Positions 10,837 through 25,919 of a stretch of 60,571 bases of DNA are shown here, one piece after another. Position numbers and translations under genes: made by a program. Position 1 is the first letter of the stretch. Each line of letters starts with the position of its first letter. This DNA is from Acutalibacteraceae bacterium (GTDB lineage: Bacteria > Bacillota > Clostridia > Oscillospirales > Acutalibacteraceae): assembly GCA_045540535.1 (NCBI GenBank), contig JAZQHI010000153.1, positions 1 through 60,571 of the forward strand. The letters run 5' to 3'. The notes under the pieces are model-generated. The model worked only from the letters and a program-made list of their open reading frames with translations. It was not told the DNA's origin and did no database searches.

Positions 10837-10907
10837 CTTACTTATTAAGTGCTTCGTTGACTGCAACTGCGCAAGCAACAGTCATACCAACCATGGGGTT
10901 GTTACCA
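10837..10907. repeat. attL-side copy of the 71-bp direct repeat (displaced gene 3' end)
   Basis: Matches 25849-25919 with 5 mismatches. On the minus strand it still encodes GNNPMVGMTVACAVAVNEALNK-stop. Confidence 0.85.
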
Positions 10908-11032
10908 CTCACTATAAACAGCCCTTTTTCCTTCTGCATAACATTTTTTCTTTCTCATAACTGTTTTTTGCCTAAAAAATGGTGGTTTTCAGGGGTGCTT
11001 GTCTTCCAGCGGCTCTATGTGGCTCTATCCGT

Positions 11033-11091
11033 TGTAGAAAAAATGTTGAAAAGATATTTTTTCAACATTTGAAAAATCGTTATGTAGAAAA
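11033..11091. repeat. Left-arm cluster of TGTWGAAAA repeats (candidate integrase arm-type sites)
   Basis: TGTAGAAAA at 11033, TGTTGAAAA at 11044, inverted TTTTCAACA at 11059, TGTAGAAAA at 11083. Confidence 0.6.
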
Positions 11092-11300
11092 AACTCTCTC
11101 ATATCGTTTTTAATCCCCCGAAGAGAAATATATTCAATTCGTGTAACACGATTATAATACCACATTCAAGATTTTTTTGCAACCTTTATAAAAAATATCA
11201 AAATTATATTTTTTGTGTCCGATTTACAACAATTTTACCCCATACTTAAATCGTGAAAAGATATTTGGATTTGCTAATTTCATTAAGGAGATACTTTGTA

Positions 11301-11608
11301 TGGCTGAGGATAACAAAAATCTTGACACATTGCTAAATAAGGTAATAGATGATACTGGAATGAGTGTTGCAGAAGAAATGTTGATGTTACAAAGACAAAG
11401 GCAAATGAAAACTGAAAGCAAACCTGTTGCTCAAATGACAGATGCTGAAAAAGAAATATTTGCAGAAATGCAAAGAGAATATATTGAAATATGCGAACTG
11501 CCATTTTTGAGTAACAAACCGATTAATTATACTGATGGATATGAACCTTTTTTCAGTCCAATTGCATCAACCATTCTGGATGCCTTCTTTACCGATAGCA
11601 AGAATTAG
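11301..11608 (+). CDS. Hypothetical protein (102 aa, acidic)
   Basis: Track ORF trimmed to the ATG at 11301 (AAGGAG RBS). A clean terminator follows. No recognisable domain. Confidence 0.5.
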
Positions 11609-11631
11609 CACGGAAAAACCGTGCTTTTTTT
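11607..11631 (+). terminator. Intrinsic terminator
   Basis: AGCACGG-AAAAA-CCGTGCT followed by TTTTTTT. Confidence 0.75.
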
Positions 11632-11912
11632 AATGCATTTTTAAAAAAGTAGCAAAAAATACCATTCTTTTTTCTATTTGCAGAAAAAAGAACCAAAAAA
11701 GGCAAAGCAAATCTTTGAAAAAGAGTTTTCAAGATTTGCATCCAGAAGGATTTTTAGAACTTGCAGCCATCTATAAAGTTGTGCTATTATCTTTGCAGTA
11801 GTTTTAAGTTTATACCCTTAACCATAGTTCCTGCATAAGATATAATATAATACTATACTATGAACTAAAATGAGAAGTTTTTGGATATGAGAAAAGCACT
11901 CAGGCGAGTGCT

Positions 11913-13184
11913 TTATTTTTTTCGCTGTTGAATTTTTGGAATACCAGATGATATTCTTGCTATTGTTCCAAGTGATAATCCTGTTCGTTCTGCAACCTCT
12001 TTATGCTTATAACCAGATTTTATCAATTTTCGTGCCATATCTTTTTTCATTTCTCTTTCTTGTTTTCGCACTTGTGCCTGTAAATCCCGTGTGATGTTTG
12101 GTCTACTCATTTCATATTTGCCTGTGTTAGCAAGTTCTTCTTCCGTAATGCCTAATTTTTCAAAAAAGGTATTATTTTTAATTTGGTAAACTTTTTCTTG
12201 CTTAAATATATAATCAATGTTTTTTAATGGTTCAGAAAAAGAGTTGTTTATTTTCCTGCATATCTTTTTTGCGGTCACAAATGGATAGATTTGTCTCGCA
12301 GAATTGAATAAAAGAAATAAAATTGTATCTCGTTTGCCCGTACAATCCGCATCATCGTTTACAATTTGCTCTATGATTTTAATTCTCTTATAATGCAAAG
12401 CAGAATAAGCACCAGTTTTCTTTTCTGTTAAGACATCGTTGTTTAGTTCTTGCTCTTTATATCTTTTTTTGATAATTTTCTTTCTTTTCAGATATGCCTT
12501 AACTGGTTCGCTCTCTTGCTCCAACTGTTTAACGAGGTCAACCAGATTGAGTGATTTATCGTGTAGAATTTCGGTCACGGTCATTGTTTTTGCCTTGGTG
12601 TTGTATGTATCAAACATTCTAAACAAACCAATGGCATTTTTACTCGCATTTGCATCAATTTCAAGATGCCTTTCAAGACTGGGATATTCTTTTAAAAATT
12701 CTTTTATAATAATAGCAAAATATTCAACTGCTCTCTGATAGAGAAACAATAATTGTGATGATGCACTTTCAAGATGCCAATATATTTGAACACCCCTTCC
12801 AGTAAAATGAAATGCCGATGGACAAGGAATTTCACCACAGGTAACAAGGTCTCTATGAAATCGCCAACAGAATTCATCGATAAGCAATTCCTTTTCGTGC
12901 ATTGGTAATTTTGAAGAGTGAGCATCGATATCGATGCAAACATTATTCAAACTGAAAAGATTATCCTTTGTTCTGCCATCCTTGGTGTTATATCGCCTTA
13001 TGGTGTTTATCATTATATAATAATCCTGAGATTTGTTGATTTTAAGATTTTCTGCTTTTTCTTTTATATTCTTAAAATCAGAATAACCAAGGCATACCAT
13101 TTTCTTGTCTTTTGTTAATGTGGCAAATTGCACCCATCCTTCGTATTTGCTATCTGGTGGGAATAAAATATCATATATATTCAT
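11913..13184 (-). CDS. Replication initiator / primase-polymerase-like protein with C-terminal HTH
   Basis: 423 aa. NVCIDIDAHS followed by FTGRGVQIYWHL resembles AEP/Prim-Pol motifs I and II. The C-terminal KEVAERTGLSLGTIARI is a helix-turn-helix. It lies next to a palindrome-rich, AT-rich region. Confidence 0.5.
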   Translation of the reverse strand: MNIYDILFPPDSKYEGWVQFATLTKDKKMVCLGYSDFKNIKEKAENLKINKSQDYYIMINTIRRYNTKDGRTKDNLFSLNNVCIDIDAHSSKLPMHEKELLIDEFCWRFHRDLVTCGEIPCPSAFHFTGRGVQIYWHLESASSQLLFLYQRAVEYFAIIIKEFLKEYPSLERHLEIDANASKNAIGLFRMFDTYNTKAKTMTVTEILHDKSLNLVDLVKQLEQESEPVKAYLKRKKIIKKRYKEQELNNDVLTEKKTGAYSALHYKRIKIIEQIVNDDADCTGKRDTILFLLFNSARQIYPFVTAKKICRKINNSFSEPLKNIDYIFKQEKVYQIKNNTFFEKLGITEEELANTGKYEMSRPNITRDLQAQVRKQEREMKKDMARKLIKSGYKHKEVAERTGLSLGTIARISSGIPKIQQRKK

Positions 13185-13194
13185 AATGCCGTGC

Positions 13195-13800
13195 TCCTTT
13201 CATTCTGTTTAAAATAAGAATGAAAGTTTTAACACTCGTTTTAAGTTTTCTGCATAGCAAAAAAGTCCTGCAAATCCAGAAGAATTGCAAGACCTTTTTG
13301 CAGCGACATTATCACGAAGGACAACATATTTTATGTTGTTAAAATAATTATGATAGACAATAAATATAAACAAAGAATTTTTAAAAGCGAAAAAGTCTTG
13401 CAAATCGTAAAGATTTACAAGACCTTTCGCACAATCCACATTTCACAACAGGAGAAACACAATGTGCCACTGTATAATTACTGTGGCACAATAAATATGA
13501 TTTACTTGAAATTGAATTAAAGGAAACAAAAATGCCTTATCAATCCGAAGACAGATAAGACTTTTTTGCAGATATATTATAGCAAACGAAACTGTAAGTA
13601 GTTTTATGTATTTACGATGACAGGAGATTAAATACAGTTTCATTTACACACACTTTTGCAATCTACCCCATTGATTGCAATGTATCATTATGACAATATA
13701 AATATGTGATATTAAATTTAAAATTGAAATATTTTTAATATTAACGAGAAAATCCTACCAACATAATTGTTGATAGGACTTTCCGATAAATTGTGATACT
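13195..13800. other. ori-like non-coding region of the IME
   Basis: No credible ORF. Inverted repeats at 13197-13226, 13265-13293, 13321-13339, 13395-13423, 13463-13490 and 13656-13680, then an AT-rich stretch at about 13682-13760. Confidence 0.4.
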
Positions 13801-13963
13801 TTAAGATGTAAAAACTATGAAAACTAAATATGAGAGAATTAAAATGATAACAAGAAAGTTATGCCGATGGACAACGGTAAAACTTTCTTGTTATTCTATT
13901 TCCAACACATCCCATCTGTGCAATTTAAGTATGAGAGAAAAATTTCAAAAAAGAAAAAATTAC

Positions 13964-14146
13964 TCATATCAAAATTTCAAAATCATCACAGATAAAACCA
14001 GTTTCTTGCCTGTTTTTCTTTTTTCTCTTTCGTTTGCGATTTTTCTGCATATCTTTTTTAGTAATTACAATAGGTCTGGATTCAACAGTAGAATTATCTG
14101 CGGTAACATCCTTGATAAAACCTTCAATTTTCTGTTTTTTTACCAT
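13964..14146 (-). CDS. Possible small basic protein (60 aa), overlaps the RHH gene end
   Basis: The ATG at 14146 overlaps the upstream stop by 23 nt, with GGGAG 11 nt upstream. KNRKRKRKKKNRQ basic tract. A hairpin follows at its stop. Weak evidence. Confidence 0.3.
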   Translation of the reverse strand: MVKKQKIEGFIKDVTADNSTVESRPIVITKKDMQKNRKRKRKKKNRQETGFICDDFEILI

Positions 14147-14405
14147 TTTTAAGTCGCTCCCATCTATTAATATTTGCTTTGCAGTTACTTGTTTGTTTCA
14201 GTTCCTTTGAAATTTCATCCAGTTGTTTTTGCAGTTTATCATCTTCTAACGATTTATTAAGCAAAAAAGGATATTTCTCAAAAACCGCAGATAGAAACAA
14301 ATCACCGATAGTCATATCGTTTAAGGCGGCAGTTGCCTTTAATTTTGCTTTCATTGTGCTACTAACAATGAACTTAACAGGAACTAAATGAGTAGATTTT
14401 TCCAT
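14124..14405 (-). CDS. Ribbon-helix-helix (CopG/Arc/MetJ-like) DNA-binding protein
   Basis: 93 aa. VKFIVSSTMKAKLKATAALNDMTIGDLFLSAVFEKY fits a beta-alpha-alpha RHH pattern. GGAG RBS. Confidence 0.55.
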   Translation of the reverse strand: MEKSTHLVPVKFIVSSTMKAKLKATAALNDMTIGDLFLSAVFEKYPFLLNKSLEDDKLQKQLDEISKELKQTSNCKANINRWERLKNGKKTEN

Positions 14406-14627
14406 AATTTAGAACTCCTTTCTATCTTTATGAAATAAGTATGACATTTTGTTCCTATGTTCAAAAGAAACTATTAGTACAAGGTAAAACATTTTGCAAA
14501 AAAAGATATGAGTAAAAATCTATAATAATTGTTTTCGGCACTTTATTCTTAAAATTTGCTCACGAACCAAAGTTTGTTGTATTTTCATTTAATTATATGC
14601 ATAAAAAATGACACCAAACGAATGGTG

Positions 14628-14969
14628 TCATTTTTTGTTGCTGTTATATAAATGGTCTATAAGATTTTCAACCATTGTATAATCGCTGTCGCTTAGAATT
14701 GATAGTTTCTTAAATATTCCTTCTAATTGCTTATATTCCTTTTTGCCTGTCAAGATGTAATCCGTAGATATTTTCAGTGAATTACACAAATTAACCAAAT
14801 TTTGCGGTCTGATTGCTTTCTTTCCTAACTCAATGCAGGAAATGGATTGCAAACTCAGATTGATACTTTCTGCCACCTGTTCTTGTGTAAGGTTCAGTTC
14901 CTTTCGCCGTTTGGAAATTCGCTCACCCATTTCCATCAAAAACTTTGCATCTTCGTACATTTCCTTCAC
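14628..14969 (-). CDS. XRE-family helix-turn-helix transcriptional regulator
   Basis: 113 aa. RRKELNLTQEQVAESINLSLQSISCIELGKK is a classic HTH_3 motif. It is divergent from the sigma-factor gene. Confidence 0.85.
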   Translation of the reverse strand: MKEMYEDAKFLMEMGERISKRRKELNLTQEQVAESINLSLQSISCIELGKKAIRPQNLVNLCNSLKISTDYILTGKKEYKQLEGIFKKLSILSDSDYTMVENLIDHLYNSNKK

Positions 14970-14981
14970 CTCGTTTCCTAT

Positions 14982-14994
14982 TACAATTATTGTA
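14982..14994. promoter_or_regulatory. Perfect 13-bp palindrome TACAAT-T-ATTGTA (candidate XRE operator)
   Basis: Lies 13 nt upstream of the XRE start codon, in the divergent intergenic region. Confidence 0.35.
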
Positions 14995-15037
14995 CTAAAA
15001 ACAGGGTGAAATTATAATCAATTATAGTTGCTCAATC

Positions 15038-15066
15038 TTGACTATTTACAACCATAGTATTATAAT
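15038..15066 (+). promoter_or_regulatory. Consensus sigma-A promoter of the cargo operon
   Basis: TTGACT-17 nt-TATAAT, about 60 nt upstream of the ATG at 15129. Confidence 0.6.
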
Positions 15067-15128
15067 ATAATGAGGTATAGTGTATTTTAAACTATTACTA
15101 TCACAATTTAAACTGTGAGGTGAAATAT

Positions 15129-16472
15129 ATGGAAAAAGGTAAATTAACTCCGATTGTAATTAAAGCAAAAAGCGGAGACAAAACGGCACTAAATACCCTC
15201 TTCACCGAAAATTATAATAGTGTGTATTTTTTCGCTCTTAAAACCGTTAAGGATGAAACACTGGCGGCTGATATCACTCAGGAGACATTTGTAACGATTT
15301 TTCAAAATTTAGATACTTTGAACGACCCTGTTGCTTACCTCGCTTGGTCAAGACAAATTACTTATAGACACTGTTTGCAATATCTTAAAAAGCAGAACAG
15401 AGAAACAACGGTTGATGAAAACGAAGATGGCTCTACTATCTTTGATACAATTCAAGAAGAAAGAACGGATTTTATTCCTGATGAAAATCTTGATAAAGAA
15501 GATTTCAAAAAAACAATTCTAAATATTGTTGACAGTCTTCCCGAAGAACAACGAACCGCTGTTATTTTATATTATTATGATGAATTGTCTGTCAGGCAGA
15601 TTGCTGAAATTCAGGGTGTAACAGAAGGAACGGTTAAGAGCAGACTTAACTATGCAAGAAAAACAATCAAATCAGCAGTAGAAAACTATGAAAAGAAAAA
15701 CAATGTCAAGTTACACAGTGTTGGTGTTCTTCCTATGCTTTTGTGGTTGTTTGGAGCGGATGCAAAGGCTTGTTCAATGCCTATGCAGACAGTACAAACC
15801 GTTGCATCAGGTGTTTCTGCTTCCACTGGCACAACAATATCTGTATCAAAATTGGTGCACATCAGTTCAAAATTGCTTGGTGCTCTATGGCAAAAAATTG
15901 TTGCAGGATTGGTTGCGGTTGCAATTGTTACTGGTGGCACGGTTGCGGTTGTAAAAATTGTTAACAAACCAGATGCACAAGTTCCGCAAGATAAAGGACA
16001 GTTAGAAACATTCCAAAAACCACCCGTAAAGGAAAATGTGGAAAGTGAAACACCCATAATCGTAACAGGTTGGCGAGGTTTTGGAGAAGCGACCAACAAA
16101 CCTTATGTATCCCAGAAAAATGAATTTATTTTGACAACAGAGCAAATGGATGAAACTTACCTTAAAGGCGAACTGACAATTTCTGTTCTTGAAGGTTCTT
16201 CATACCAAAAGTTGTTTGAAATTGATATTGAAGGTACTGGTGTAAAAGAAGATACTCAAACAATGTATACCTGTTCAATTTCTTATGATGAAGAATTGAA
16301 AGATACGATAGAAAAGTATTTTATAGATGTTCCAAATCATAACGAGTTAACTTTAAGGTATCATTTTAAAACCGAAAGTTTTGGTTTATATTTTGGCGAA
16401 TATAATGTTGCAGAAGATGCTAATATGGCTTGTTTTAATGCTCTTTTGAGAAAAAGTGATATTGTAAAATAA
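15129..16472 (+). CDS. ECF-type sigma-70 family factor fused to a TM helix and a ~170-aa extracytoplasmic domain
   Basis: Region 2 (DITQETFVTIFQNL...AWSRQITYRHC) and region 4 (LPEEQRTAVILYYYDELSVRQIAEIQGVTEGTVKSRLNYARK). A hydrophobic segment IVAGLVAVAIVTGGTVAVVKIV follows, then a beta-rich C-terminal domain. Start moved to ATG 15129 (GAGGTG RBS). Confidence 0.8.
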   Translation: MEKGKLTPIVIKAKSGDKTALNTLFTENYNSVYFFALKTVKDETLAADITQETFVTIFQNLDTLNDPVAYLAWSRQITYRHCLQYLKKQNRETTVDENEDGSTIFDTIQEERTDFIPDENLDKEDFKKTILNIVDSLPEEQRTAVILYYYDELSVRQIAEIQGVTEGTVKSRLNYARKTIKSAVENYEKKNNVKLHSVGVLPMLLWLFGADAKACSMPMQTVQTVASGVSASTGTTISVSKLVHISSKLLGALWQKIVAGLVAVAIVTGGTVAVVKIVNKPDAQVPQDKGQLETFQKPPVKENVESETPIIVTGWRGFGEATNKPYVSQKNEFILTTEQMDETYLKGELTISVLEGSSYQKLFEIDIEGTGVKEDTQTMYTCSISYDEELKDTIEKYFIDVPNHNELTLRYHFKTESFGLYFGEYNVAEDANMACFNALLRKSDIVK

Positions 16473-16699
16473 AAATTTTTAAAAATTTTTCCAAAAAAAT
16501 AAAACCAAACAGGTTTCTCGTTCCTCCTATTAATGTAAGGAGGATGAAAAAGTGAGAGAACATAACAATTTATACTATATTTTTTTATGGGATTTTGAAA
16601 AAAATAACCTCTCATTAAAAATGGCAAAACAAATTTGGCAAACAATTAAAAATCGTTTATTTTAAAAATTTATCTAATTAAAACTTGGAGGAAAAAATT

Positions 16700-17506
16700 A
16701 TGGGTTTATTTGAAAAAAAGGAATGTGTTAATTGCGGTAAAATGTGCGGTGTGTTTGGAAGGCAAAAAACCGAAGACAAGAAAATTTTATGCAATGATTG
16801 TGCTAACAAAGTCGGAAACGAATTGTCTGCTTGGCAATATACATACGACCAGTATCCTGCACTTGTTGAAAGATGCAATGAAAATGAAAAAAGATTGCAG
16901 GAATTTAATATTGATAAAGTGTATTATGACAGAATTGTTATTGATGAAACAAATAACTGGATTGCTATTCTTGACGATACTGTTTTCACCGTTAAGAAAA
17001 AACATTTACTTACACAAAAACCTCACATTTATGATGCAAAAGATTTAAAGTTCTTCCTGCAAAAGTTTGATATTAAAAAACAAGAAACTACACTTTTAGG
17101 AACAACGATTTATATTGATTTTCATACTACTATGGTATTTGAAGATGAGTTCGTTCCGTGTCCGCTAAATAGTGTTGTTGAAGAAAACCGTGAGGTAGAA
17201 GTAAAGGGTGTCTTCAATAAAAAGGTTGAAGGTTTTTACAAACAAGGTGATTTAGAACTCTTCAAATTTGCAAATGACATATTGAAGGAAAAAGGTTTAG
17301 AAAGACCAGTTGAAATGCAAAAAGGCGATACTATTGAAAGTCTTGATAAATATGCACCTTGGTTTAAAGTGTTGTTTGAACTGGAAAAGAAAAAAATTAT
17401 TGATGATGACCAAGTGGAAAATATCTTAGATGGTATTACAGAAAATATGGGTATCTTCGGCGGTAGCAAGATGTCCTCACAAATCAGAAAAAGATTTGGT
17501 GTTTAA
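16700..17506 (+). CDS. DUF4428-like zinc-ribbon protein
   Basis: MGLFEKKECVNCGKMCGVFGRQKTEDKKILCNDCANK has an N-terminal CxxC...CxxC ribbon typical of the DUF4428 family as I remember it. GGAGG RBS before ATG 16700. Confidence 0.6.
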   Translation: MGLFEKKECVNCGKMCGVFGRQKTEDKKILCNDCANKVGNELSAWQYTYDQYPALVERCNENEKRLQEFNIDKVYYDRIVIDETNNWIAILDDTVFTVKKKHLLTQKPHIYDAKDLKFFLQKFDIKKQETTLLGTTIYIDFHTTMVFEDEFVPCPLNSVVEENREVEVKGVFNKKVEGFYKQGDLELFKFANDILKEKGLERPVEMQKGDTIESLDKYAPWFKVLFELEKKKIIDDDQVENILDGITENMGIFGGSKMSSQIRKRFGV

Positions 17507-17522
17507 TTAAGAAGGGGTTGCG

Positions 17523-18716
17523 GTGACAATTATGAGCAAACAAGAAATAGATACAAATGAAATTGCGGGGAAGAAAAAACCGACACTAAATTTAGGCGAA
17601 ATTAACTTTTACGGATTGTGGCATACAGTTAAAACCTTTTGCACTTTCTTCGCTTTTGTAAGTGCATTTATTTGGTTTTTTCCTCAAACTCTTCCAATAG
17701 ATGAAATTTTTATGTTGATACTGCTTGGTTTAGGTGCTGTATGTGCACTTGTGTCTTGCATTGTTGATGTCTTTAAAATCACTCATTTTGTAGCAGCAAC
17801 AATAACCAAAGTGTTGACAGCGATATCTGTGTTCACATTAATTCCGTTTCTTCCTATTTTTGTTGCAATTATAACATATACGGGTACATTTGCATTTGCT
17901 TTTGTATTCTGTATAATGTTCCCTTATGTGATTACGGTAATTACATATATAGTTAGACTGATAATCGCAAAAAATGAAGGTATCTTTATTGAAAACAAGA
18001 AGAAGGAAATCATTACAGCAGTAGCAGGTTTTTTAACTGCGGTTTCGGTTCTTGTGCTTTGTTTAATTATTCGTAGCACAACGGTTACTGTTACAAACTT
18101 GACAATGGATGACCTTAACCAACAGCAAGTATATAGCGAATATATTGCTGATTTTCCTGAGCGAACTGTTGATGGTATTGATATTACAAATCCTACCAGT
18201 AGCAAATACAATGCCGATACTCTTAGTCACGATGATGTATATGACTTTGAAACAACTGTTGGCGGTGTGACTTATAAAAACAAAGTGACAATTCATTACG
18301 AATATAGAGATGGTAAATGGAAACTTGATGAAATCAATGAGCAAAGAGATTTAGACAATGCTACCATTGATATTTCTGGCACTTTTGAAGGTGTTGGCAA
18401 ATTTGAAGGTGCTCTTGCCATGAGAGATTTTCAATACACATTCAAGATTGAAAAATTAACCAAAGACGGTGGCACAGCATCGCTAGTCATCTACGATGAT
18501 AGAACAAATGAAAATCTTGTTGATACAAAATCCAATATTACGGTTGTTGAAACGATAACCGAGAACAACGATATTGTTTTAAATCTTAATATTGAATTTA
18601 ACCCTGCACTTGAAGGTGGCATTGATAATGTTGAAGGAAAATATTCAGTAGCAACTGGAACATTAACCGTACACGGTTTCTCGTTTAATGATGATATTAT
18701 TCTCTCAATTAAATAA
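17523..18716 (+). CDS. Polytopic membrane protein with a ~200-aa extracytoplasmic C-terminal domain
   Basis: 397 aa. About 5 TM helices in residues 30-190, then a beta-rich soluble domain. No family recognised. The start could instead be ATG 17532. Confidence 0.55.
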   Translation: MTIMSKQEIDTNEIAGKKKPTLNLGEINFYGLWHTVKTFCTFFAFVSAFIWFFPQTLPIDEIFMLILLGLGAVCALVSCIVDVFKITHFVAATITKVLTAISVFTLIPFLPIFVAIITYTGTFAFAFVFCIMFPYVITVITYIVRLIIAKNEGIFIENKKKEIITAVAGFLTAVSVLVLCLIIRSTTVTVTNLTMDDLNQQQVYSEYIADFPERTVDGIDITNPTSSKYNADTLSHDDVYDFETTVGGVTYKNKVTIHYEYRDGKWKLDEINEQRDLDNATIDISGTFEGVGKFEGALAMRDFQYTFKIEKLTKDGGTASLVIYDDRTNENLVDTKSNITVVETITENNDIVLNLNIEFNPALEGGIDNVEGKYSVATGTLTVHGFSFNDDIILSIK

Positions 18717-18753: not shown

Positions 18754-19869
18754 ATGAAAAGATTACTTGCTTTATTACTTGCGACATTGATGGTCTTCTC
18801 GCTCGTTTCTTGTGGCAACAGCGATACCAAGGGTGGTTCTAACACCGAAAAGAGTGTTGAAGAAATTGTTAAGAATGATGATAGTACCATTGGAAAATTA
18901 GTTAGAACTTGGTGCGAAACAATTTCCATTACAGACCAAGCAAAAGGTTATGCTAATCGTGCAGAAAATAACTTTTATAAATTTAATTACACCAGTGAAG
19001 AAAAAGCAGATGGTGAAGATATTAAACGAGTTTACGAAAGCGAAAACAAAAGATATAAATTTACTGTTAGTTATGACAAGGCAGAAAATACACTGACAAT
19101 TTTTGACGAAAGACAATCTACAATAACTGGTCGTATACAAGGTTGTAATGAAGTTGAGATGGGTTATAATGCCAGCACAACAGTTGTTAAGTTTAATGCA
19201 GAAAACATCTTGGTTAGTGCAACAAAAACGGATGCAGAAAAACCTGAATATGATTTTTCATACGACCAAATGATTTACACTTTTGATGAAAAAGGCAATC
19301 TGATTGAGACTGTTCCTAAAAACACCAATACTAATAGTATATTTGGAGATAGTTACAAATATAAATACGAATATGATGAGAATAATAACCTGATTAAATT
19401 AATTCACGATGATGACTATACTGAATATACATACGATGAAAACGGCAATATAACTGTATATTCTTATACAACCGATGAATACGGCGAAACAATGGAAAAA
19501 AGTCCGTTCAAATGTGAAAAACTTGAAAACGGAAACATAAAAATAACTCAGTTTGATGTTGAAAATAAAGACCGTGTTATCCGTTGGGAAATCTATGACC
19601 ACTATGGTAATTCAATTGAAAGAACTGATTATAAAGAAGATGGAACAGTAGATTTTTCTTCAAAATGCAAATACAACGAAGAAGGCGATTGCATTGAGGA
19701 AACAAGAACAGATGAATATGGCGAAAGTGTTACAGGATACGAATACAATGAATACGGAAATACGATTAAAACAATCTACTACAACGATGAAGGCAAGGCT
19801 TATTCAATTACCGAATACAAATACGACGAAAATGGGAAGAAGATAGATGAGGAAACCTATCGTCCTTAG
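18754..19869 (+). CDS. Lipoprotein with YD/RHS-like repeats
   Basis: MKRLLALLLATLMVFSLVSCG lipobox. Repeats include YTFDEKGNL, YEYDENNNL, YTYDENGNI, YDHYGNS, YNEEGDC, YEYNEYGNT and YKYDENGKK. Confidence 0.7.
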   Translation: MKRLLALLLATLMVFSLVSCGNSDTKGGSNTEKSVEEIVKNDDSTIGKLVRTWCETISITDQAKGYANRAENNFYKFNYTSEEKADGEDIKRVYESENKRYKFTVSYDKAENTLTIFDERQSTITGRIQGCNEVEMGYNASTTVVKFNAENILVSATKTDAEKPEYDFSYDQMIYTFDEKGNLIETVPKNTNTNSIFGDSYKYKYEYDENNNLIKLIHDDDYTEYTYDENGNITVYSYTTDEYGETMEKSPFKCEKLENGNIKITQFDVENKDRVIRWEIYDHYGNSIERTDYKEDGTVDFSSKCKYNEEGDCIEETRTDEYGESVTGYEYNEYGNTIKTIYYNDEGKAYSITEYKYDENGKKIDEETYRP

Positions 19870-19891
19870 TAAATAGAAAGGTAAAACGATT

Positions 19892-19963
19892 ATGAAACGA
19901 ACACTGGCAGTACTACTCGTTTTTGTATTAGTGTTAGGTGATGTCAAGAAAAGTATCAGTTAG
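19892..19963 (+). pseudogene. Stub of a signal-peptide/lipoprotein gene (23 codons)
   Basis: AAAGG RBS, then MKRTLAVLLVFVLVLGDVKKSIS-stop. The N-terminus resembles the upstream lipoprotein signal peptide and then terminates. Confidence 0.35.
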
Positions 19964-20000
19964 TAGATACTAAAAGTATCACTTAGATGATACCAAAAAG

Positions 20001-20040
20001 GATATGAGTGAAAACAAAAAATCTACTCATATCTTTTTTT
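20001..20040. terminator. Bidirectional terminator built on a GATATGAG stem
   Basis: AAAAAG-GATATGAGT...ACTCATATC-TTTTTTT. Confidence 0.6.
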
Positions 20041-20225
20041 ATGCTCTGTTCGCAAGTGGAGTGCAACGATTATTATGCTCTGTCCGACCGTAAGGGAGTT
20101 GGATGGAGCATTTTTTCGTAGAAAACTCAGTTTTTGTGGCAGTATTGCGGCGGTATGCCACAAAATGTACTGAGTTATATTTTCTGTGAAAATATAATCG
20201 TTTAAATAAAGTTTCCTTCATTATT
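20041..20225. other. Structured, relatively GC-rich non-coding island (candidate oriT, single-strand origin or sRNA)
   Basis: Hairpin A at 20075-20111 has a 14-bp stem including 3 G-U pairs, loop CGTAAGGGA, then T-run. Hairpin B at 20126-20174 has a 10-bp perfect TTTTGTGGCA/TGCCACAAAA stem plus a 6-bp outer stem. It lies immediately upstream of the mob genes. Confidence 0.45.
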
Positions 20226-20278
20226 ACACTAAGACCATATCAAAAAAGATATGAGAAAAAATGAAAGGAGTTATTTAA

Positions 20279-20524
20279 ATGCAAGACCCTCACTTTTTCC
20301 CTTTAACAGAGCAACAAGTTTTTGAAAACCAAAAATCACTATCCGAGAAATTAAATTTTGCCAAAACGATTTGTGACCTTGCATCCGAAGAAGGTTGGTT
20401 TGCTGATATGTTTGGAGTTAGTCCACGAGATGCAAGTCTTTTGTCATATGAAATATCCGTTATACAAGAAAAGATAATTGGCAATCTCATAATTTTTGAT
20501 GAAAGGGAAGATAAGGTGATTTAA
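20279..20524 (+). CDS. Small acidic protein translationally coupled to the relaxase (possible relaxosome accessory)
   Basis: 81 aa, AAAGGAG RBS. Its TAA overlaps the relaxase ATG (TAATG). Confidence 0.5.
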   Translation: MQDPHFFPLTEQQVFENQKSLSEKLNFAKTICDLASEEGWFADMFGVSPRDASLLSYEISVIQEKIIGNLIIFDEREDKVI

Positions 20525-21978
20525 TGGAAGAAATAAATGCTACTTTATCATTTCATATGGATAGTAGACATAATGATAAACACGATGCAAGAAATTTGTA
20601 TGTGCCATATGTAAATCCAGAATTGAGCATAAACAATTATTATCCTGATTTTAATATGTCCAGAGAGCAGGCATTTGAATTTTTATTTAGCGATGCTGTC
20701 CGTGAGTATAATCAAAAACAGACCAGACCTGAACGAAGGATTAAAAATTACTTGGAAAAACTCTTGGCATCAGAAGAGCGACAAAATCAACTGATTAGAG
20801 AAAAACGAGCAGAAGGATGCAGTTATAAAGAATTAGCGAAATTCAGGAAGAAAAAACACTGCTCCGTTCAAATGATTATAGGAATTGGCAATATACAGGA
20901 AAATCCAGAGTTCAAAGCAAATGGTTCAAAGGCGGAGGTTGTCAATAAAATCATAAAAGAATATATTGATGGATTTCAGGAACGAAATCCAAATGCCTTC
21001 CTGTACCACAGTGCACGGCATAACGATGAGCAGGGAGTTATTCATGGACACCTGTCAATAATCTGGTATGCGGATGGGTTCACCAAAGGTATGAGCAGAC
21101 AAGTATCGCAGAAAAAAGCACTGGAACAGATGGGATTTGTGTCTGACACGAAAAAAGGTGCGGATGGTAAATTGCATCTCGCCATTGAGAAGTGGCAGCA
21201 AAGAGAACGGTCTGTTCTCCGTAGCATCTGCAAATCCTACGGCATCAACATTGTATCTGGTAGAGAAAGTCGCGAACACCTTGACCGTGAGCATTATATT
21301 ATAAAAAAGCAAAAAGAAGAGTGTGCTACACTATTAAAAGATGCAAACGAGAAAGCGGGTGCTGTTTTAGCAGCACAAGAAAAGGTTGATGCACAACTTT
21401 TTGACATCAAGAATTTTTTACAAAATACCGAAAACGGTGCTGTTTATTCCATATATGCAGAGAACCGTGACAGCAAAGAAAAAATTTCCGCATACGAAAA
21501 AAAGAATAGGGAGACATATTTTCTATTGGCAAGATTATGGGAAGAATATAAAAAAGAAAATGCACGGTACTGGGAAAAGTACCGTGCAGATAAAAATGAA
21601 CTCTTTGCATCTCTCCAAGCAATTCGGAACGGTGTCAAGTACAATAAGAAGCAACTGGATGATTGCTTATATTCGCTTTTAGATACCAGTCAATCGCTTT
21701 TAAGCAAACTAATATCCATTATAGAACTGTTTGCTTTGCTCGTTGAGAACACTGTTTTTAAGCGAGAATTAGCGAAGATAGAACAAGCACACAGAGAACT
21801 AAAAGAAAATGCCCGTGTGGTGTTACAGGCATCCAAAGAAACCAGTATCGCTCTAAAATCAAAAGATATGGATAATGTAGAACTTGCACTACAAAACTGG
21901 AACACGACTATTCAAAAAACTGATAATGACTTGCGATTACAATTTCAAACGGTTGATGAACAATATAAAGGGATATAA
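20524..21978 (+). CDS. HUH-type mobilization relaxase (MOBQ/MOBV-like) with coiled-coil C-terminus
   Basis: 484 aa. Three-histidine motif HNDEQGVIHGH, N-terminal Tyr candidates (NLYVPY), and a long K/E-rich helical C-terminal half. Confidence 0.7.
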   Translation: MEEINATLSFHMDSRHNDKHDARNLYVPYVNPELSINNYYPDFNMSREQAFEFLFSDAVREYNQKQTRPERRIKNYLEKLLASEERQNQLIREKRAEGCSYKELAKFRKKKHCSVQMIIGIGNIQENPEFKANGSKAEVVNKIIKEYIDGFQERNPNAFLYHSARHNDEQGVIHGHLSIIWYADGFTKGMSRQVSQKKALEQMGFVSDTKKGADGKLHLAIEKWQQRERSVLRSICKSYGINIVSGRESREHLDREHYIIKKQKEECATLLKDANEKAGAVLAAQEKVDAQLFDIKNFLQNTENGAVYSIYAENRDSKEKISAYEKKNRETYFLLARLWEEYKKENARYWEKYRADKNELFASLQAIRNGVKYNKKQLDDCLYSLLDTSQSLLSKLISIIELFALLVENTVFKRELAKIEQAHRELKENARVVLQASKETSIALKSKDMDNVELALQNWNTTIQKTDNDLRLQFQTVDEQYKGI

Positions 21979-21980
21979 TG

Positions 21981-22020
21981 AAAAAAGATATGAGAGATTT
22001 TGTTTCTCTCATATCTTTTT
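21981..22020. terminator. Bidirectional terminator built on a GATATGAG stem
   Basis: AAAAAAGATATGAGAG-ATTTTGTTT-CTCTCATATCTTTTT, between convergent genes. Confidence 0.65.
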
Positions 22021-22929
22021 GTGTTTTTTCTTAAATTCTTCAATATCAAAATTTATTGTTACATAGGTGCGGGGTTTCGGAACTTTCTCTGCTAACAACT
22101 GCCAACGGCGGTATACATTGTAACTGCTAATCATATTCAGCATTTCCATCGCTCTTTCAACCCTTGCTCGTTCGGAAGGAACGGTGTCTATCATAGTATC
22201 CGCCAAGTTGCTGATTTCATAATATTCACTGGGCACTCCTCCGCATCTCTTTGGTAAATCAAAAATCTCAAATGGTTGGTTAGAAAGGTCATCACTGTAA
22301 CTTAATGTGTTTTCATAATCATTCGCCATCAACCAAAATGTGATTTTACTGCTAATACCACAATAATCCTTTAATAATTCTAATGTGGTCTTTGGACTAA
22401 TTTGATAAGTTTCATATGCAAAATAAATTTCTTTAAATGCATCGTTAATATTTAACCTCTGTTCAGTTCTAAGTCCCCCTGAATTTTTTTGTGGTATCGC
22501 ATTGCTAACATAAACAGAAAAATCTTCAATGAGTTCAGATGCTGATTTTGAAGACTTAACAAAGAAATCTTCTCCTGCTTTCTGGTTTCCAAATCTTAGT
22601 GTGGAAAACGGAGAGATTTTTGCGATTGCTCCATCAAAATTAAAAATCAAAAGGTCAATGCCTTTTTGCAGGATAGCAGTATAGAACATCGTTGCCTTTT
22701 GACTGTTACCCATCAGCAAGGCATCCACAGAATACATATCTATTCTATCGCCTGTATCCAGTTTTTCAATCAGTTCCATTAATTTTGGTCTGTTGTCTGT
22801 ATCAGAGCGAATAATATCAATGACAATTTCATCAACACCAATAGAATACAATTCTTGATATGCTACTGTTTTCTTAATATCAATCGTTGTATTTCGTATG
22901 CTTACACCGTATCCATAAGCTTTTTTCAT
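22009..22929 (-). CDS. Resolvase-N-domain-like protein lacking the catalytic Ser/Arg signature
   Basis: Track ORF trimmed to the ATG at 22929 (AAGGGG RBS, and a divergent promoter lies upstream). KAYGYGVSIRNTT aligns to the GYxRVSTxxQ position without R or S. RPKLMELIEKLDTGDRIDMYSVDALL resembles the resolvase core. Confidence 0.45.
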   Translation of the reverse strand: MKKAYGYGVSIRNTTIDIKKTVAYQELYSIGVDEIVIDIIRSDTDNRPKLMELIEKLDTGDRIDMYSVDALLMGNSQKATMFYTAILQKGIDLLIFNFDGAIAKISPFSTLRFGNQKAGEDFFVKSSKSASELIEDFSVYVSNAIPQKNSGGLRTEQRLNINDAFKEIYFAYETYQISPKTTLELLKDYCGISSKITFWLMANDYENTLSYSDDLSNQPFEIFDLPKRCGGVPSEYYEISNLADTMIDTVPSERARVERAMEMLNMISSYNVYRRWQLLAEKVPKPRTYVTINFDIEEFKKKHKKI

Positions 22930-22968
22930 ATAATTACCCCTTTTTAAAAAATAAACCTTTCCAAAGGC

Positions 22969-22997
22969 TTGACAATGAAACTGTTGGTGTGTATAAT
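22969..22997 (+). promoter_or_regulatory. Consensus sigma-A promoter reading toward xis-int
   Basis: TTGACA-17 nt-TATAAT, about 210 nt upstream of xis. Confidence 0.55.
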
Positions 22998-23041
22998 AAT
23001 AGTGGTATAGGTGGAATACAAAAACCACCTATAAAAAATCT

Positions 23042-23118
23042 CTTGCTATGGGTATAGGCAAAAGGCGATTAAATGTCGCCTAAAACAATACCTTGCTATG
23101 AGTATAGCAAAAAGGCGA
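23042..23118 (+). repeat. Two 27-bp direct repeats, 50 bp apart, in the xis-int leader
   Basis: CTTGCTATGGGTATAGGCAAAAGGCGA at 23042 and CTTGCTATGAGTATAGCAAAAAGGCGA at 23092. Each contains a TTGCTAT/ATAGCAA palindrome. Confidence 0.6.
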
Positions 23119-23209
23119 GAGAAAGTCAAGCATCTTGACACCTGAATATAAAAATTCAGCACATTGCGAGGTCGTACACAACTAAAAATCAATTTGAAAG
23201 GAGTTTTAT

Positions 23210-23461
23210 ATGGAACAGATGACCCGAACTATCTCAACCGATATTAAATTGTATTCCGTTAAGGAAGTCGCAAGTTTGCTTTCAATCAGCAAGAACAGGG
23301 TTTATGACCTTATTTATGCTAACCGTATTCCTGCTATGGATATAGGCGGGTTAAAAATAAGGCACGAAACTCTTGCTGATTTTCTCAAAAATATGGAGGG
23401 GTACGAGGTTGATTTCAACCACCCAGAAAATCTTTATGTTTTGCAGAAAAGAACTGCATAG
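23210..23461 (+). CDS. xis: Excisionase-family DNA-binding protein
   Basis: 83 aa. YSVKEVASLLSISKNRVYDLIYANRIPAMDIGG is a MerR-like HTH_17 excisionase motif. It lies directly upstream of int. Confidence 0.8.
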   Translation: MEQMTRTISTDIKLYSVKEVASLLSISKNRVYDLIYANRIPAMDIGGLKIRHETLADFLKNMEGYEVDFNHPENLYVLQKRTA

Positions 23462-23474
23462 AAAGGAGTAAAAA

Positions 23475-24980
23475 ATGAGTAAAAGTATTGAAACAGTAAG
23501 AACCGTTCATATCTTCAAATCTAAATACAAAAGAAAGGACGGTAAGGAAACTTGGTCGTATCGTTTTGAAATGCCATATCGCCGTGCAGATGGCAAAAGA
23601 GATTTTGCCACAAAGAGTGGTTTTGCAACAAAAACGGCGGCGAAAACGGCAGGACAACAAGAGTTCAACCGTATCTATAATGGTGTTGTACCACAAATTA
23701 CCAAGTCTGATGACCGTGTTGCAGAACTTCGTTTCAAGGACTACATCACAAACTATTGGTATCCGTTTAAGCAAAAATTGGTAAAAGACACCACTATGGA
23801 GGGGTATCAAAAGAAATTCAACGGTATTTTATTTCCTAGATTTGGTAACACGGCAATAAAGGACATCACAACCGAGGTTTTAGAAGAGTTCTTAAACACG
23901 GACATTTACCTTAATTCCGAGTTATCAAACCACACACTTCTTAACCTACGGGCATTGTTAAAGCAAGTTTTTAATTTCGCCGTTAAAAACGGACATATTG
24001 ATACAAATCCAATGCTCACAGCAACTCCCCACAACCCTCGCATACCACCTAATGTGGTCAAACGAGGACAGTGCCGAACCGCTATTGATAAGGGAACACT
24101 TGACAAAATCTACGATTTATACCCCAAAGGCACTCTTGAACATCTTGCCCTTAAAATTATGCAACTGACAGGTATGAGACACGGAGAGTGTTTTGCTCTT
24201 GATTGGAGAGATATTTGTTTTGAAAATCATTGTATTTATCTTGTTAGACAGATACAGAGAAAATCATCAAAATTCACTCCGACTGCTTGGGAAAAAGAAC
24301 TACTTGCAAAACACCCCGAACTTCGTAATTTCAAGTGGTATATCAGCAACCCTAAATACGAAAGTCGCCGTGCTATTCCTATGTCAGCAGAGATTGAGCA
24401 ATTGCTTAAAGATGAATTGGAGTGTCAACAAGCAAATCGTAAAAAATATGGTGCAAAGTATAAGAGGTATTTCTATACTCGTAGAACTGCACCCCGTTAT
24501 TACAACGACTTTCATACCTTTAATACTTGCACAAGTCAAATTAAGGGGGAAATCGTTACAGAGTTTGAGAATGGTATTCTTAACGAACACGGTATTGGTT
24601 ACGAGTTCAACCCTGTTTTTCGCCGTGTGAATGGTGCTTATTATACATCTGGAAACACTCAATATATTTCTCGTAAAATTCACGGTTACGAAGGTAACGA
24701 ACTTATTTCAAGCACCTTTAATATTCATTCTTTACGACACACTTATGCATCTTCTATGAGGTCAATGGGTTTTGAAAGTTACATTGTGCAAAGTTTAATG
24801 GGACACAAAAATCCATCAACGACAACACAGGTGTATATGCATCTTGAAGAGAATGTGTTTACACAGGTGGCACACACGGTCAACACTATGGGCAGTGTGG
24901 ATGCCTTAATCAACAATCTCTCCAACGAACAGTTGGAAGAGTTGAAAATAAAATTATTAAATAAAGGAGAATTGCAGTAA
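23475..24980 (+). CDS. int: Tyrosine-type site-specific integrase with N-terminal arm-binding domain
   Basis: 501 aa. The N-terminus KRKDGKETWSYRFEM...GFATKTAAK is Tn916-type arm-binding-like. Catalytic TGMRHGE, HSLRHTYAS and GHKNPSTTTQVYMH motifs are present. Confidence 0.9.
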   Translation: MSKSIETVRTVHIFKSKYKRKDGKETWSYRFEMPYRRADGKRDFATKSGFATKTAAKTAGQQEFNRIYNGVVPQITKSDDRVAELRFKDYITNYWYPFKQKLVKDTTMEGYQKKFNGILFPRFGNTAIKDITTEVLEEFLNTDIYLNSELSNHTLLNLRALLKQVFNFAVKNGHIDTNPMLTATPHNPRIPPNVVKRGQCRTAIDKGTLDKIYDLYPKGTLEHLALKIMQLTGMRHGECFALDWRDICFENHCIYLVRQIQRKSSKFTPTAWEKELLAKHPELRNFKWYISNPKYESRRAIPMSAEIEQLLKDELECQQANRKKYGAKYKRYFYTRRTAPRYYNDFHTFNTCTSQIKGEIVTEFENGILNEHGIGYEFNPVFRRVNGAYYTSGNTQYISRKIHGYEGNELISSTFNIHSLRHTYASSMRSMGFESYIVQSLMGHKNPSTTTQVYMHLEENVFTQVAHTVNTMGSVDALINNLSNEQLEELKIKLLNKGELQ

Positions 24981-25555
24981 TGCAGGAATTGTTTGTAGGC
25001 CAAAAGGCAAGAAATTTGAAAATGTTTGAGGCAGTTTATAAAAACTGCCCTTACAAAAACTTTGAATACACAGGATTAAACATCACAGAAGATGGGACTT
25101 TAATATTGTGTAATTTCATACCCAACATTCGTAAAATAGAGATTGACTATTTTATGAATAGAAAGACAAAGTTTTATAACTTTGATGTTGACAATACAAT
25201 ATCGGCACTTTTATTACGAGGTTCAGTAAGTTGCGACCAAATATTAGAGCCAATATACCCCGACAATCGTATTGATTTGATATCTCAAAACAAAGAAATG
25301 CTTATGTTAATGGTTGATACGGCAACAGATGAGGTCAAAGCATTTCGTATGTGCTTATTACCTGATAGAGTATGTCAAACAATAGTTGAGAATTTAAACA
25401 AAATCAAACAGGCAAATATTTCACAGGAGAATTTGTTAAGGTCATTAACAACTGAAATTTATTCCAGAACTCCCGAACGACTTGAAAAACTTGGAAGATA
25501 CATAGGTAAAGAGAGCAACAGTATTACATCGGCGAAAATGATGTTTCCTATTTAA
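24980..25555 (+). CDS. Hypothetical protein coupled to int (191 aa)
   Basis: Its ATG overlaps the int stop (TAATG). No recognisable domain. Confidence 0.45.
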   Translation: MQELFVGQKARNLKMFEAVYKNCPYKNFEYTGLNITEDGTLILCNFIPNIRKIEIDYFMNRKTKFYNFDVDNTISALLLRGSVSCDQILEPIYPDNRIDLISQNKEMLMLMVDTATDEVKAFRMCLLPDRVCQTIVENLNKIKQANISQENLLRSLTTEIYSRTPERLEKLGRYIGKESNSITSAKMMFPI

Positions 25556-25613
25556 ATAAGAGGGGATGTTCCATCTTATTATTTACAACATACAATTAAA
25601 TGCAATCAAGTGA

Positions 25614-25640
25614 AGAGAGGGACAACCCCTCTCTTTTTGT
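25614..25640 (+). terminator. Intrinsic terminator
   Basis: AGAGAGGG-ACAAC-CCCTCTCT followed by TTTTGTTGTTTT. Confidence 0.7.
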
Positions 25641-25732
25641 TGTTTTAGTATTAAAAAAATAGTTATGTGGGAGTTTTTCCTGCATAACTTTTTTGCGAAA
25701 AACTGCTGAATTATAAGCAAATCAAAACCCGA

Positions 25733-25768
25733 TGTTGAAAAAATGTAGAAAATTCACCGTGTTGAAAA
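25733..25768. repeat. Right-arm cluster of TGTWGAAAA repeats (candidate integrase arm-type sites)
   Basis: TGTTGAAAA at 25733, TGTAGAAAA at 25744, TGTTGAAAA at 25760. Confidence 0.6.
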
Positions 25769-25798
25769 TAAAAAACAAGGTTTAAGGTCGTTAAACCT
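25765..25798 (-). terminator. Element-borne terminator now serving the GGGtGRT operon
   Basis: On the minus strand, AGGTTTAA-CGACC-TTAAACCT is followed by TGTTTTTTATTTT, about 50 nt downstream of the stop at 25850. Confidence 0.55.
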
Positions 25799-25848
25799 CA
25801 AACCTTGAATTTCGTAAAAGTCCTAAAACCCTTTATTTATGCGGTTTT

Positions 25849-25919
25849 CTTACTTATTAAGTGCTTCGTTTACTGCAACTGCACATGCAACTGTCATACC
25901 AACCATCGGGTTGTTACCA
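25849..25919. repeat. attR-side copy of the 71-bp direct repeat (functional gene 3' end)
   Basis: See attL. It forms the last 23 codons of the intact gene. Confidence 0.85.

Follow-up and report, generated by a model that had tools for sequence, protein, structure and literature searches.

A 15-kb probable integrative mobilizable element at the 3′ end of a GGGtGRT gene in an Acutalibacteraceae bacterium

The insertion locus

The window—the whole 60,571-nt stretch of DNA analyzed here—is contig JAZQHI010000153.1 (positions 1–60,571, forward strand) of assembly GCA_045540535.1 from an Acutalibacteraceae bacterium. Positions 10837–25919 hold a 15-kb interval that is very probably an integrative mobilizable element (IME), which site-specific recombination would have placed at the 3′ end of the GGGtGRT gene of an Acutalibacteraceae-like gut bacterium of the Clostridia. 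The target gene (25850–26851, minus strand) matches the GGGtGRT family PF14057 with E = 3e-195 over profile positions 1–327 of 327 and has a NifU-like partner gene upstream at 26870–27562. Since the match covers the whole profile, the segment duplicated at the ends of the element lies inside the conserved domain and not in a dispensable tail.

The longest direct repeat returned by a repeat search of positions 9000–28000 is 71 nt long, occurs at 10837–10907 and 25849–25919 with a spacing of 15,012, and is 93% identical between its copies; for 60.6 kb of the window's composition, the chance expectation is about 1e-22 such pairs. Minus-strand translation of either copy gives GNNPMVGMTVACAVAVNEALNK-stop, so all five mismatches (10859/25871, 10871/25883, 10874/25886, 10880/25892, and 10895/25907) are synonymous. 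The right copy, attR (25849–25919, minus strand), forms the last 22 codons and the stop of the intact gene, with positions 25850–25873—the stop and seven codons—lying beside element DNA. The left copy, attL (10837–10907, minus strand), is an orphan of the same 22 codons and stop: no gene body precedes it, its place being taken by unrelated sequence with in-frame stops. Within attL, 10837–10861 is the displaced gene end and 10862–10907 a 46-nt core held in common with attR. The repeat search, the translation, and the PF14057 match thus confirm the first-pass annotation of this locus, made from the sequence alone, as to the repeat, its synonymous differences, and the roles of its two copies. The same annotation had called the interval visibly more AT-rich; its GC content of 33.6% is indeed lower than that of the left (35.3%) and right (38.3%) sides, a contrast that is real but small.

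Two hairpins followed by T-runs accompany the two gene ends. The hairpin at 10732–10795 (minus strand; DNA fold of −19.5 kcal/mol, z = −6.45) lies just downstream of the orphan gene end, outside the element, and was presumably the terminator of GGGtGRT before the insertion; a consensus terminator scan made no call at this hairpin. The one at 25775–25812 (minus strand; fold z = −3.3) is borne by the element, follows the rebuilt stop codon, and is likely the replacement terminator of GGGtGRT, probably ending its transcription ahead of the convergent int operon. The motif ATTTATGCG(G/T)TTTT abuts both repeat copies (10820–10836 and 25833–25848) in opposite orientations.

Empty and occupied sites

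Loci compared with the window are numbered with the prefix L. L001 (GCA_052832985.1), the single contig retrieved by an exact-protein look-up of the GGGtGRT product, is collinear with window positions 25850–36826 (95.5%) and 1278–10067 (92.3%) and encodes an identical GGGtGRT protein; the 15-kb interval is absent from it, and the gene end occurs there just once. Between the GGGtGRT stop and the point at which homology resumes, it carries 1.2 kb with three small genes, one of them for a 23S_rRNA_IVP protein (L001:11003–12209). The window counterpart of this segment (10034–10836), reaching from the GGGtGRT end to the TMEM164 gene, holds a 224-aa lipoprotein-like open reading frame (ORF) and the outer hairpin, and divergence begins right after the shared upstream region.

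Exact look-up of the integrase returned six metagenome contigs (L002–L007), and a scan of species-representative genomes added L008, an Oscillospiraceae metagenome-assembled genome (MAG), and L009, an Acutalibacteraceae MAG in which the host GGGtGRT is 95% and the element 97% identical. On those of the contigs L002–L007 that reach far enough, the int–xis end abuts a GGGtGRT whose protein is just 76% identical and whose neighbors are different. L034 is collinear with window positions 10836–23182 at approximately 97% and has its left junction, including attL, in yet another flank. Over L002–L009, L034, and L036, the element, 96–99% identical in nucleotide sequence, occupies this gene end in no fewer than three further host backgrounds, with GGGtGRT proteins that are 76%, 75%, and 95% identical. 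An element conserved at 96–99% next to a host target protein conserved at 75–95% therefore points to recent horizontal spread. The site is thus polymorphic for presence and absence—empty in L001, occupied in L002–L009, L034, and L036—and independent assemblies reproduce both junction types, attL in L034 and L036 and attR in L002–L009. What is shown, then, is an element that attL and attR delimit, that a close relative lacks, that different species carry at this one gene end, and that encodes an apparently intact integrase. The earlier expectation that the same element would be met at the same gene elsewhere is borne out, and a universal presence of the interval in the clade, which had been named as the finding that would speak against insertion, is contradicted by L001. 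Exact look-ups of the window's Rep, of a 209-aa lipoprotein-like ORF, and of a 191-aa ORF returned no recorded match.

A local duplication was rejected as the origin of the repeat, given the empty locus of L001 and the same element at the loci of the family. The difference between the window and L001 at 10068–10836 suggests native strain variation or, alternatively, what is left of an earlier element in tandem. The latter is disfavored by the lack of a third copy of the repeat and by the position of the 224-aa ORF, which takes the place of the small surface-protein genes of L001 directly after homology with L001 ends (window 10001–10067). Weak support for an earlier element comes from the hairpin stem GACACATCAT/ATGATGTGTC, which recurs beside GGGtGRT in L024 and in L016.

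Attachment sites and strand exchange

Right junctions were compared across L002–L009 and left junctions across L034 and L036. The terminal 24 nt of attR are near-constant over the hosts of L002–L009 and read TTACTTTTTTAATGC[C/T]TCTTCAAC, encoding ...EEALKK and the stop, with two variable T/C sites, namely the bracketed one and a T-to-C change in L008. In attL, by contrast, the terminal 21–24 nt change along with the flank of the host, whereas the core and the adjoining element DNA are constant; the attL end of L036 is 3 nt shorter and encodes a native ...VEEASK-stop as opposed to the element-supplied ...VEEALKK-stop. The next 45–46 nt of the gene end are common to attL and attR. With the attR end constant and the attL end following the host, the final seven codons and the stop must come from the element, and the exchange falls within the 46-nt core.

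The exchange may take place in the stop-proximal part of this core (25874–25882), for which there are two hints, the exact point not being fixed by the data. The attL of L034 has host-type bases in this part, and a degenerate copy of the repeat in L005 has amino-acid-changing differences solely distal to the equivalent of 25874–25882, as expected of a part of attP that would never be expressed. A crossover at the stop codon, with the attR repeat wholly derived from the host, was rejected because the terminal 21–24 nt of attL follow the host flank and not the element. A crossover at the repeat's other end, at the GNNP codons, is disfavored by polymorphism at positions equivalent to 25907 that is independent of the element.

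The core is more variable than its surroundings. Among L002, L003, and L004 it differs at 2–3 of 47 positions, compared with 2 of 930 in the gene bodies and 0–2 of 1000 at the element ends (Fisher p 4e-4 to 8e-3). The variable sites (equivalents of 25874, 25892, and 25907) are synonymous and all in third codon positions, gene bodies and element ends being otherwise 99.8–100% identical.

Both arms carry clusters of the motif TGTWGAAAA: four sites at 11033–11091 in the left arm and three at 25733–25768 (plus strand) in the right arm. The window has 12 matches where 3.9 are expected, and 7 of the 12 fall in these two patches beside the att sites. Their placement on both arms corresponds to the classical layout of arm-type sites, making them candidate binding sites of the integrase.

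The integrase and its target

The element encodes a 501-aa tyrosine integrase (23475–24980, plus strand) with SAM-like N-domains and a PF00589 catalytic domain (5.5e-19). As expected of a tyrosine recombinase, all 26 sequences compared keep R235, H418, R421, H444, and Y454; a match of the N-terminus to the arm-binding domain PF14657 is weak (E = 0.0026) and under the cut-off of that family. The PF00589 match spans residues 219–459, that is, 240 residues for 150 profile positions, and the catalytic domain therefore contains an insertion of approximately 100 residues. This stretch holds the family-invariant residues N292, P293, K294, S297, and R299. The integrase gene is preceded by one for an excisionase-type HTH_17 protein (xis-like; 23210–23461, plus strand; PF12728, 7e-12), an order found in nearly all loci of the family, and is followed by a co-transcribed 191-aa ORF (24980–25555, plus strand), which is confined to the closest copies and has no family match.

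The family is rare, with 37 clusters at E ≤ 1e-20 in a large protein collection. Of 21 loci with an integrase relative (37–91% identical), 17 have the GGGtGRT/NifU-like pair adjoining, two have the orphan copy alone, and two end at the contig edge; in the informative MAG loci, from Acutalibacteraceae and Oscillospiraceae, the integrase lies at the GGGtGRT end or beside an orphan copy in 19 of 19. Every orphan, in all lineages, starts at the same GGT AAC AAC CC (GNNP) codons. As judged by these sequences, the 501-aa integrase is specific for the GGGtGRT 3′ end and its family is strictly site-specific.

The best PDB sequence matches of the integrase are 6emy, 6en0, and 6emz (6emy, E = 6e-15), listed in the search just as "Int protein" and taken by us to be the Tn1549 integrase. 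With these and with lambda-type integrases, it shares the SAM-like core-binding domain, the R..HxxR..H..Y residues, and the weak PF14657 match (E = 0.003); candidate arm sites are repeated on both arms of the element. The integration of Tn916 and Tn1549 shows little sequence specificity. The family described here differs from the 6emy type in its strict site specificity and in the approximately 100 extra residues within the catalytic domain.

The family loci vary in size and layout. L011 contains a 4.8-kb mini-island (L011:6967–11841; int 57% identical) of xre, a membrane protein gene, xis, and int, devoid of relaxase and rep, which sits between an orphan copy and a gene end. In L020 (2451–13299) and L023 (5785–9691), the integrase is at the element end distant from GGGtGRT.

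Relaxase and candidate origin of transfer

The 484-aa protein encoded at 20524–21978 (plus strand), with a coiled-coil C-terminus, is assigned by homology and by its predicted structure as a divergent relaxase of the MOBV superfamily (Mob_Pre-like). A tblastn search matched 370 plasmid records at approximately 25% identity (best E = 1e-14), 349 of which are mobilizable, and among the matches listed the annotation is "plasmid recombination protein." PF01076 is found in homologues with 43–55% identity across the N-terminal half. Both expected motifs, HxxR and HxDE..HxH, are in place: H20, R23, H166, E169, H174, and H176 are invariant, and D168 is kept in at least 90%. For an AlphaFold (AF2) model of residues 1–280 with a predicted local distance difference test (pLDDT) score of 90.2, the six top PDB matches are all MobM (4lvk and related; E 7e-5 to 2e-3, probability 1.00), the next fold match following at E = 0.5.

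MobM of pMV158 (PDB 4lvi–4lvm) and the relaxase hence have a similar fold (TM 0.56–0.59 on the target) and the HxxR and HxDE..HxH motifs in common, whereas sequence identity is merely 14–16%. The published nick motif of MobM, GTGTG/TT, is absent as such, the corresponding block here containing CTGTsCGAC. Upstream of the relaxase operon, this block, ATGyTCTGTsCGACmGTAwGGAG, precedes a long hairpin (z = −5.1), and the two together make up a candidate origin of transfer (oriT) at 20036–20185 (plus strand). The same block and a hairpin, with stems that are different yet complementary, lie upstream of 30–32% identical relaxase genes in L008 and L012. An 81-aa ORF (20279–20524, plus strand) overlaps the relaxase start codon, is kept with the relaxase in L002–L009 and L118, and has no family match; it is possibly a relaxosome accessory protein. 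Downstream, and divergent from xis, a gene for a protein of 306–339 aa (22009–23028, minus strand) belongs to the backbone, its product being 99% identical in L118 and 31–33% in L008 and L010; PDB sequence and family searches with the 306-aa protein gave no informative match.

Replication module

The 423-aa Rep protein (11913–13184, minus strand) features an N-terminal primase–polymerase fold of the archaeo-eukaryotic primase (AEP) type and a C-terminal helix-turn-helix (HTH). By tblastn it is 24–27% identical (E = 3e-10) to a clostridial plasmid "replication protein." Its AF2 model (pLDDT 81.5) has fold matches solely to AEP/Prim-Pol proteins—PriS, CAPP Prim-Pol, S-2L PrimPol, and LigD-Pol—and the DxD and downstream acidic catalytic residues expected of this fold are present: D84, D86, H88, and D176 are invariant, as are R129, G130, and Q132. 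The AEP domain has no Pfam or NCBIfam match, and a search of the Rep profile against the PDB matched only the C-terminal HTH.

Upstream of rep, two 55-nt repeats with internal dyads (13209–13430) fall in the most AT-rich kilobase (28.5% GC) and form a candidate replication origin. A 93-aa ORF (14124–14405, minus strand) travels with rep, co-occurring with it in L032–L036 and L118. It has no family match, and the label of a ribbon-helix-helix (RHH) regulator given to it in the first-pass annotation finds no database support; from its sequence pattern, RHH/CopG-like would be a guess. A further conserved ORF of the module (11213–11608, plus strand), also of no family match, recurs at 45% amino acid identity (E = 4e-23) beside the Rep homologue of L032.

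The replication module is also found apart from the rest of the element. L032, a 14.9-kb metagenome contig, carries at 5280–7835 the 93-aa ORF, a Rep with 76% identity, and a 131-aa ORF. It was the sole contig with Rep in the metagenome scan, has no GGGtGRT fragment and no att site, and shares the replication module only.

Classification, mechanism, and alternatives

By its gene content the interval corresponds to an IME: it has an integrase and delimiting att repeats, its own relaxase with a candidate oriT, and no complete conjugation apparatus. The features of an integrative and conjugative element—genes of a type IV secretion system (T4SS), VirB4/TcpF, or a coupling protein—were not detected among the element ORFs scanned (14 in Pfam, 10 in NCBIfam). 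The searches likewise detected neither genes for packaging, capsids, or lysis nor any resemblance to known phages, as a prophage or phage satellite would show. The assignment as an IME and not a conjugative element made in the first-pass annotation stands. Its calls of int, the xis-like gene, and the XRE gene agree with Pfam (PF00589; PF12728; PF12844 and PF01381), and those of the relaxase and the Rep-like protein are upheld by homology and predicted structure.

The following mechanism is proposed. The attP of the circular form would mimic the last 22 codons and the stop of GGGtGRT, and Int would exchange strands in the 46-nt core (10862–10907/25874–25919), probably guided by the TGTWGAAAA sites on both arms. 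After integration the gene would end in element DNA—a stop and seven codons followed by the terminator hairpin of the element—leaving its native end and terminator as an orphan, and the HTH_17 Xis would assist excision, the reverse of this reaction. The excised circle could be replicated by the AEP Prim-Pol Rep from the AT-rich repeats upstream of rep. For transfer, the MOBV relaxase and its 81-aa partner would nick oriT within 20036–20185, and the strand would exit via the T4SS of a co-resident conjugative element, such a helper being needed because the island has no T4SS of its own. The XRE and sigma-fusion proteins presumably control the switch, and the surface-protein genes would be exchangeable cargo.

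Several observations weigh against an active IME of this kind. The pre-insertion allele foreseen in the first-pass annotation, with GGGtGRT running straight into the 10732–10795 hairpin, was not found; L001 does lack the interval and the second repeat but differs between the gene end and position 10067. The circular junction likewise sought failed to appear: no excised circle with an attP junction occurs in the compared loci or viral contigs. The attR end of the window is of an NEALNK type, one base away from its own orphan (25850–25873 versus 10838–10861), whereas the sibling copies are all of the EEALKK type beside identical element DNA, a pattern not accounted for by site-specific recombination of the simple kind; it may stem from gene conversion, from a tandem history, or from an allele outside the sample. 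Pfam and NCBIfam, PF01076 included, give no match to the relaxase even at E ≤ 10, its sequence profile matched only coiled-coil proteins and not MobM in the PDB, and phmmer gave nothing useful, so that its assignment builds on tblastn, the annotations of homologues, the motifs, and the fold. The oriT, the replication origin, and the arm sites are read from sequence patterns only, and the window holds no helper T4SS outside the element either.

Three other explanations were considered. The interval may be mainly a small mobilizable plasmid that integrates occasionally, its chromosomal copy being a by-product. The rep module on L032, which lacks a GGGtGRT fragment, would fit this, as would the annotation of the Rep homologues as clostridial plasmid replication proteins and the position of the nearest annotated relatives of the relaxase on small mobilizable plasmids. 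Yet all copies of the int module that reach the junction abut the GGGtGRT end (in L005, a degenerate copy), no attP circle was seen, and 72,556 plasmid records contain no match; the backbone of L118, which has a Tn916-type integrase, appears integrated too, since it is located 79–101 kb into a 106-kb contig. A plasmid is, on balance, quite unlikely. The layout of int–xis, an XRE repressor, and an AEP Prim-Pol Rep, together with the size of approximately 15 kb, resembles phage-inducible chromosomal islands (PICIs) and raises the idea of a phage satellite or decayed prophage, in which these genes would be the satellite core and transfer would proceed via hijacked phage particles. The Rep fold matches do include a cyanophage PrimPol, and three proteins have weak, function-less PHROG matches, but PHROGs and Pfam detect no terminase, capsid, portal, packaging, or lysis family, the MOBV relaxase is present with its catalytic motifs intact, 50,697 phage records give no megablast match, and the integrase relatives on IMG/VR viral contigs are at most 27% identical. 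A satellite is accordingly very unlikely.

Most improbable, and scarcely credible, is a fixed immobile genomic island, a local duplication, or an assembly artifact with the repeat as a functionless relic. Such an origin would agree with the lack of an observed excision product and with the two repeat copies being nearly identical over their first 22 nt, which, unlike the siblings, could hint at gene conversion or misassembly. Against it, six independent metagenome contigs encode an integrase with 100% identity, and the backbone ORFs are all intact and 96–99% conserved across hosts of different species, indicating that the element spread horizontally in recent times. In addition, near-identical host/element pairs vary in the att core, fitting ongoing recombination, and both junction types are seen in independent assemblies. 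The insertion of an IME by site-specific recombination therefore is the preferred reading.

Relation to known elements

The IME closest in kind is IMESag-rpsI of Streptococcus agalactiae, for which circle excision and mobilization were demonstrated experimentally (PMC5090054). IMESag-rpsI is always integrated at its one site; both are small tyrosine-integrase IMEs at the 3′ end of one protein gene and have a MOBV-family relaxase, an oriT upstream of mob (a candidate here), and no T4SS or coupling protein. They differ in target and size, rpsI and approximately 9 kb as opposed to GGGtGRT and 15 kb, in the relaxase, which is a canonical, Pfam-recognized MOBV1 in IMESag-rpsI but not here, and in that the present element, known from sequence alone, adds the AEP Prim-Pol Rep and a sigma-factor module and resides in animal-gut Clostridia.

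Insertion into the end of a protein gene had been regarded as uncommon in the first-pass annotation, which overstates the case: such insertion is common for IMEs of Firmicutes. Passages of PMC5357655 give 11 distinct target genes for the tyrosine integrases of streptococcal IMEs, the non-tRNA ones being protein-coding and usually hit at the 3′ end, with rpsI, rpmG, rplL, rpmE, guaA, tatD, and ebfC as protein-gene targets. They also describe IMEs at rpmG with the integrase adjacent or opposite to the target gene, the same dichotomy as between the adjacent integrase of L002–L009 and the distal one of L020 and L023. Further features shared with streptococcal and Faecalibacterium IMEs, as passages of PMC5357655 and PMC12084326 describe them, are integrase families each devoted to a single gene's 3′ end, the occurrence of decayed remnants, and the swapping of integration modules between backbones; tandem accretion is common for IMEs in the same passages. 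MOBV IMEs (PF01076 or cd17242) are common in Oscillospiraceae and abundant in Faecalibacterium, as stated in a passage of PMC12084326. The targets named in the passages of PMC5357655 and PMC12084326 are the streptococcal ones, lysS, traG, and tRNA genes in element names, GGGtGRT not being among them.

In a word search of the literature for GGGtGRT, the matches listed appear, as judged by titles and abstract openings, to be omics or unrelated studies, none of them on integration; no published description of GGGtGRT as a target or of this integrase family was found in the literature searched. It is conceivable, with chances somewhat short of even, that the GGGtGRT 3′ end is an unrecognized, lineage-wide integration hotspot of Acutalibacteraceae and Oscillospiraceae, served by dedicated tyrosine integrases of approximately 500 aa. 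Its elements may vary in size between the 4.8-kb mini-island and IMEs of 15 kb, int lying at one end or the other, and they may mimic the last approximately 66–71 nt of the gene and rewrite the last 6–7 residues of a conserved protein (...EEASK to ...EEALKK). If so, the surplus of synonymous variants in the att core, along with the host-like end of the window's gene, would record frequent cycles of integration and excision, with occasional conversion of the gene-end mimic of the element toward the host sequence.

The element is real but of an ordinary kind of IME, and the understanding of such elements is unchanged. With it, the list of site-specific IMEs gains a target gene and an integrase family that are both new, in a clade of uncultured ruminant and animal gut Clostridia whose mobile elements are hardly annotated. 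Since the integrase is consistently tied to the GGGtGRT end, this locus can serve as a simple marker for such islands and their cargo in MAGs; model-based automated screens likely miss them because the relaxase and Rep escape Pfam and NCBIfam. The copies across hosts provide a natural series for mapping the crossover and for following how the gene-end mimic stays compatible with many hosts.

Regulators, cargo, and flanking regions

Two regulators lie between the replication module and the cargo: an XRE-family HTH protein (14628–14969, minus strand; PF12844 and PF01381, E approximately 1e-12) and an extracytoplasmic function (ECF)-type sigma-70 domain, comprising regions 2 and 4, to which a C-terminal extension of 260 aa is fused (15120–16472, plus strand; PF08281, 1e-15; PF04542, 2e-9). 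The sigma-fusion protein is kept in L009, L033–L035, and L118. The variable cargo at 16685–19869 (plus strand) comprises, by Pfam, a DUF4428 protein, a 397-aa membrane protein, and an RHS-repeat lipoprotein. PADLOC and PHROGs assign no function to the cargo and detect no known defense protein in the element. In other copies the cargo is different: DUF3137/LemA genes replace it in L033 and L118, a CAP-domain gene is present in L002–L007, and part of it is deleted in L002.

The integration module is exchanged as well. The backbone of L118 (GCA_045593385.1) is 93–99% identical up to window position 23175 and continues with a Tn916-type Xis and integrase (L118:13743–15844), no GGGtGRT fragment being nearby; the xis–int–attP block is therefore an exchangeable module. 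L005 (7830–8185) has the right end of the element followed by the degenerate repeat copy (GNNGVVGMTVAPAVAVEEALKK-stop) and then, in place of GGGtGRT, by a convergent gene's 3′ end, the product being a membrane-anchored protein rich in Ser, an arrangement that, by analogy, probably reflects tandem accretion of a second element.

The remaining window (1–10000 and 27000–60571) is ordinary chromosome with no tRNA or Rfam match. Cell-wall polysaccharide genes lie to the left of the element, and to its right are VanZ, PcsB/FtsEX, S6-SSB-S18, GH3, AraC regulators, GalT, Ffh, BirA, and OadB. The motif AAAGATATGAG, allowing at most one mismatch, has 8 of its 10 window matches within the element, 7 of these 8 being intergenic (11098, 14502, 19998, 20026, 20245, 21984, and 22008) and some arranged as inverted pairs, and could be an operator or promoter element.

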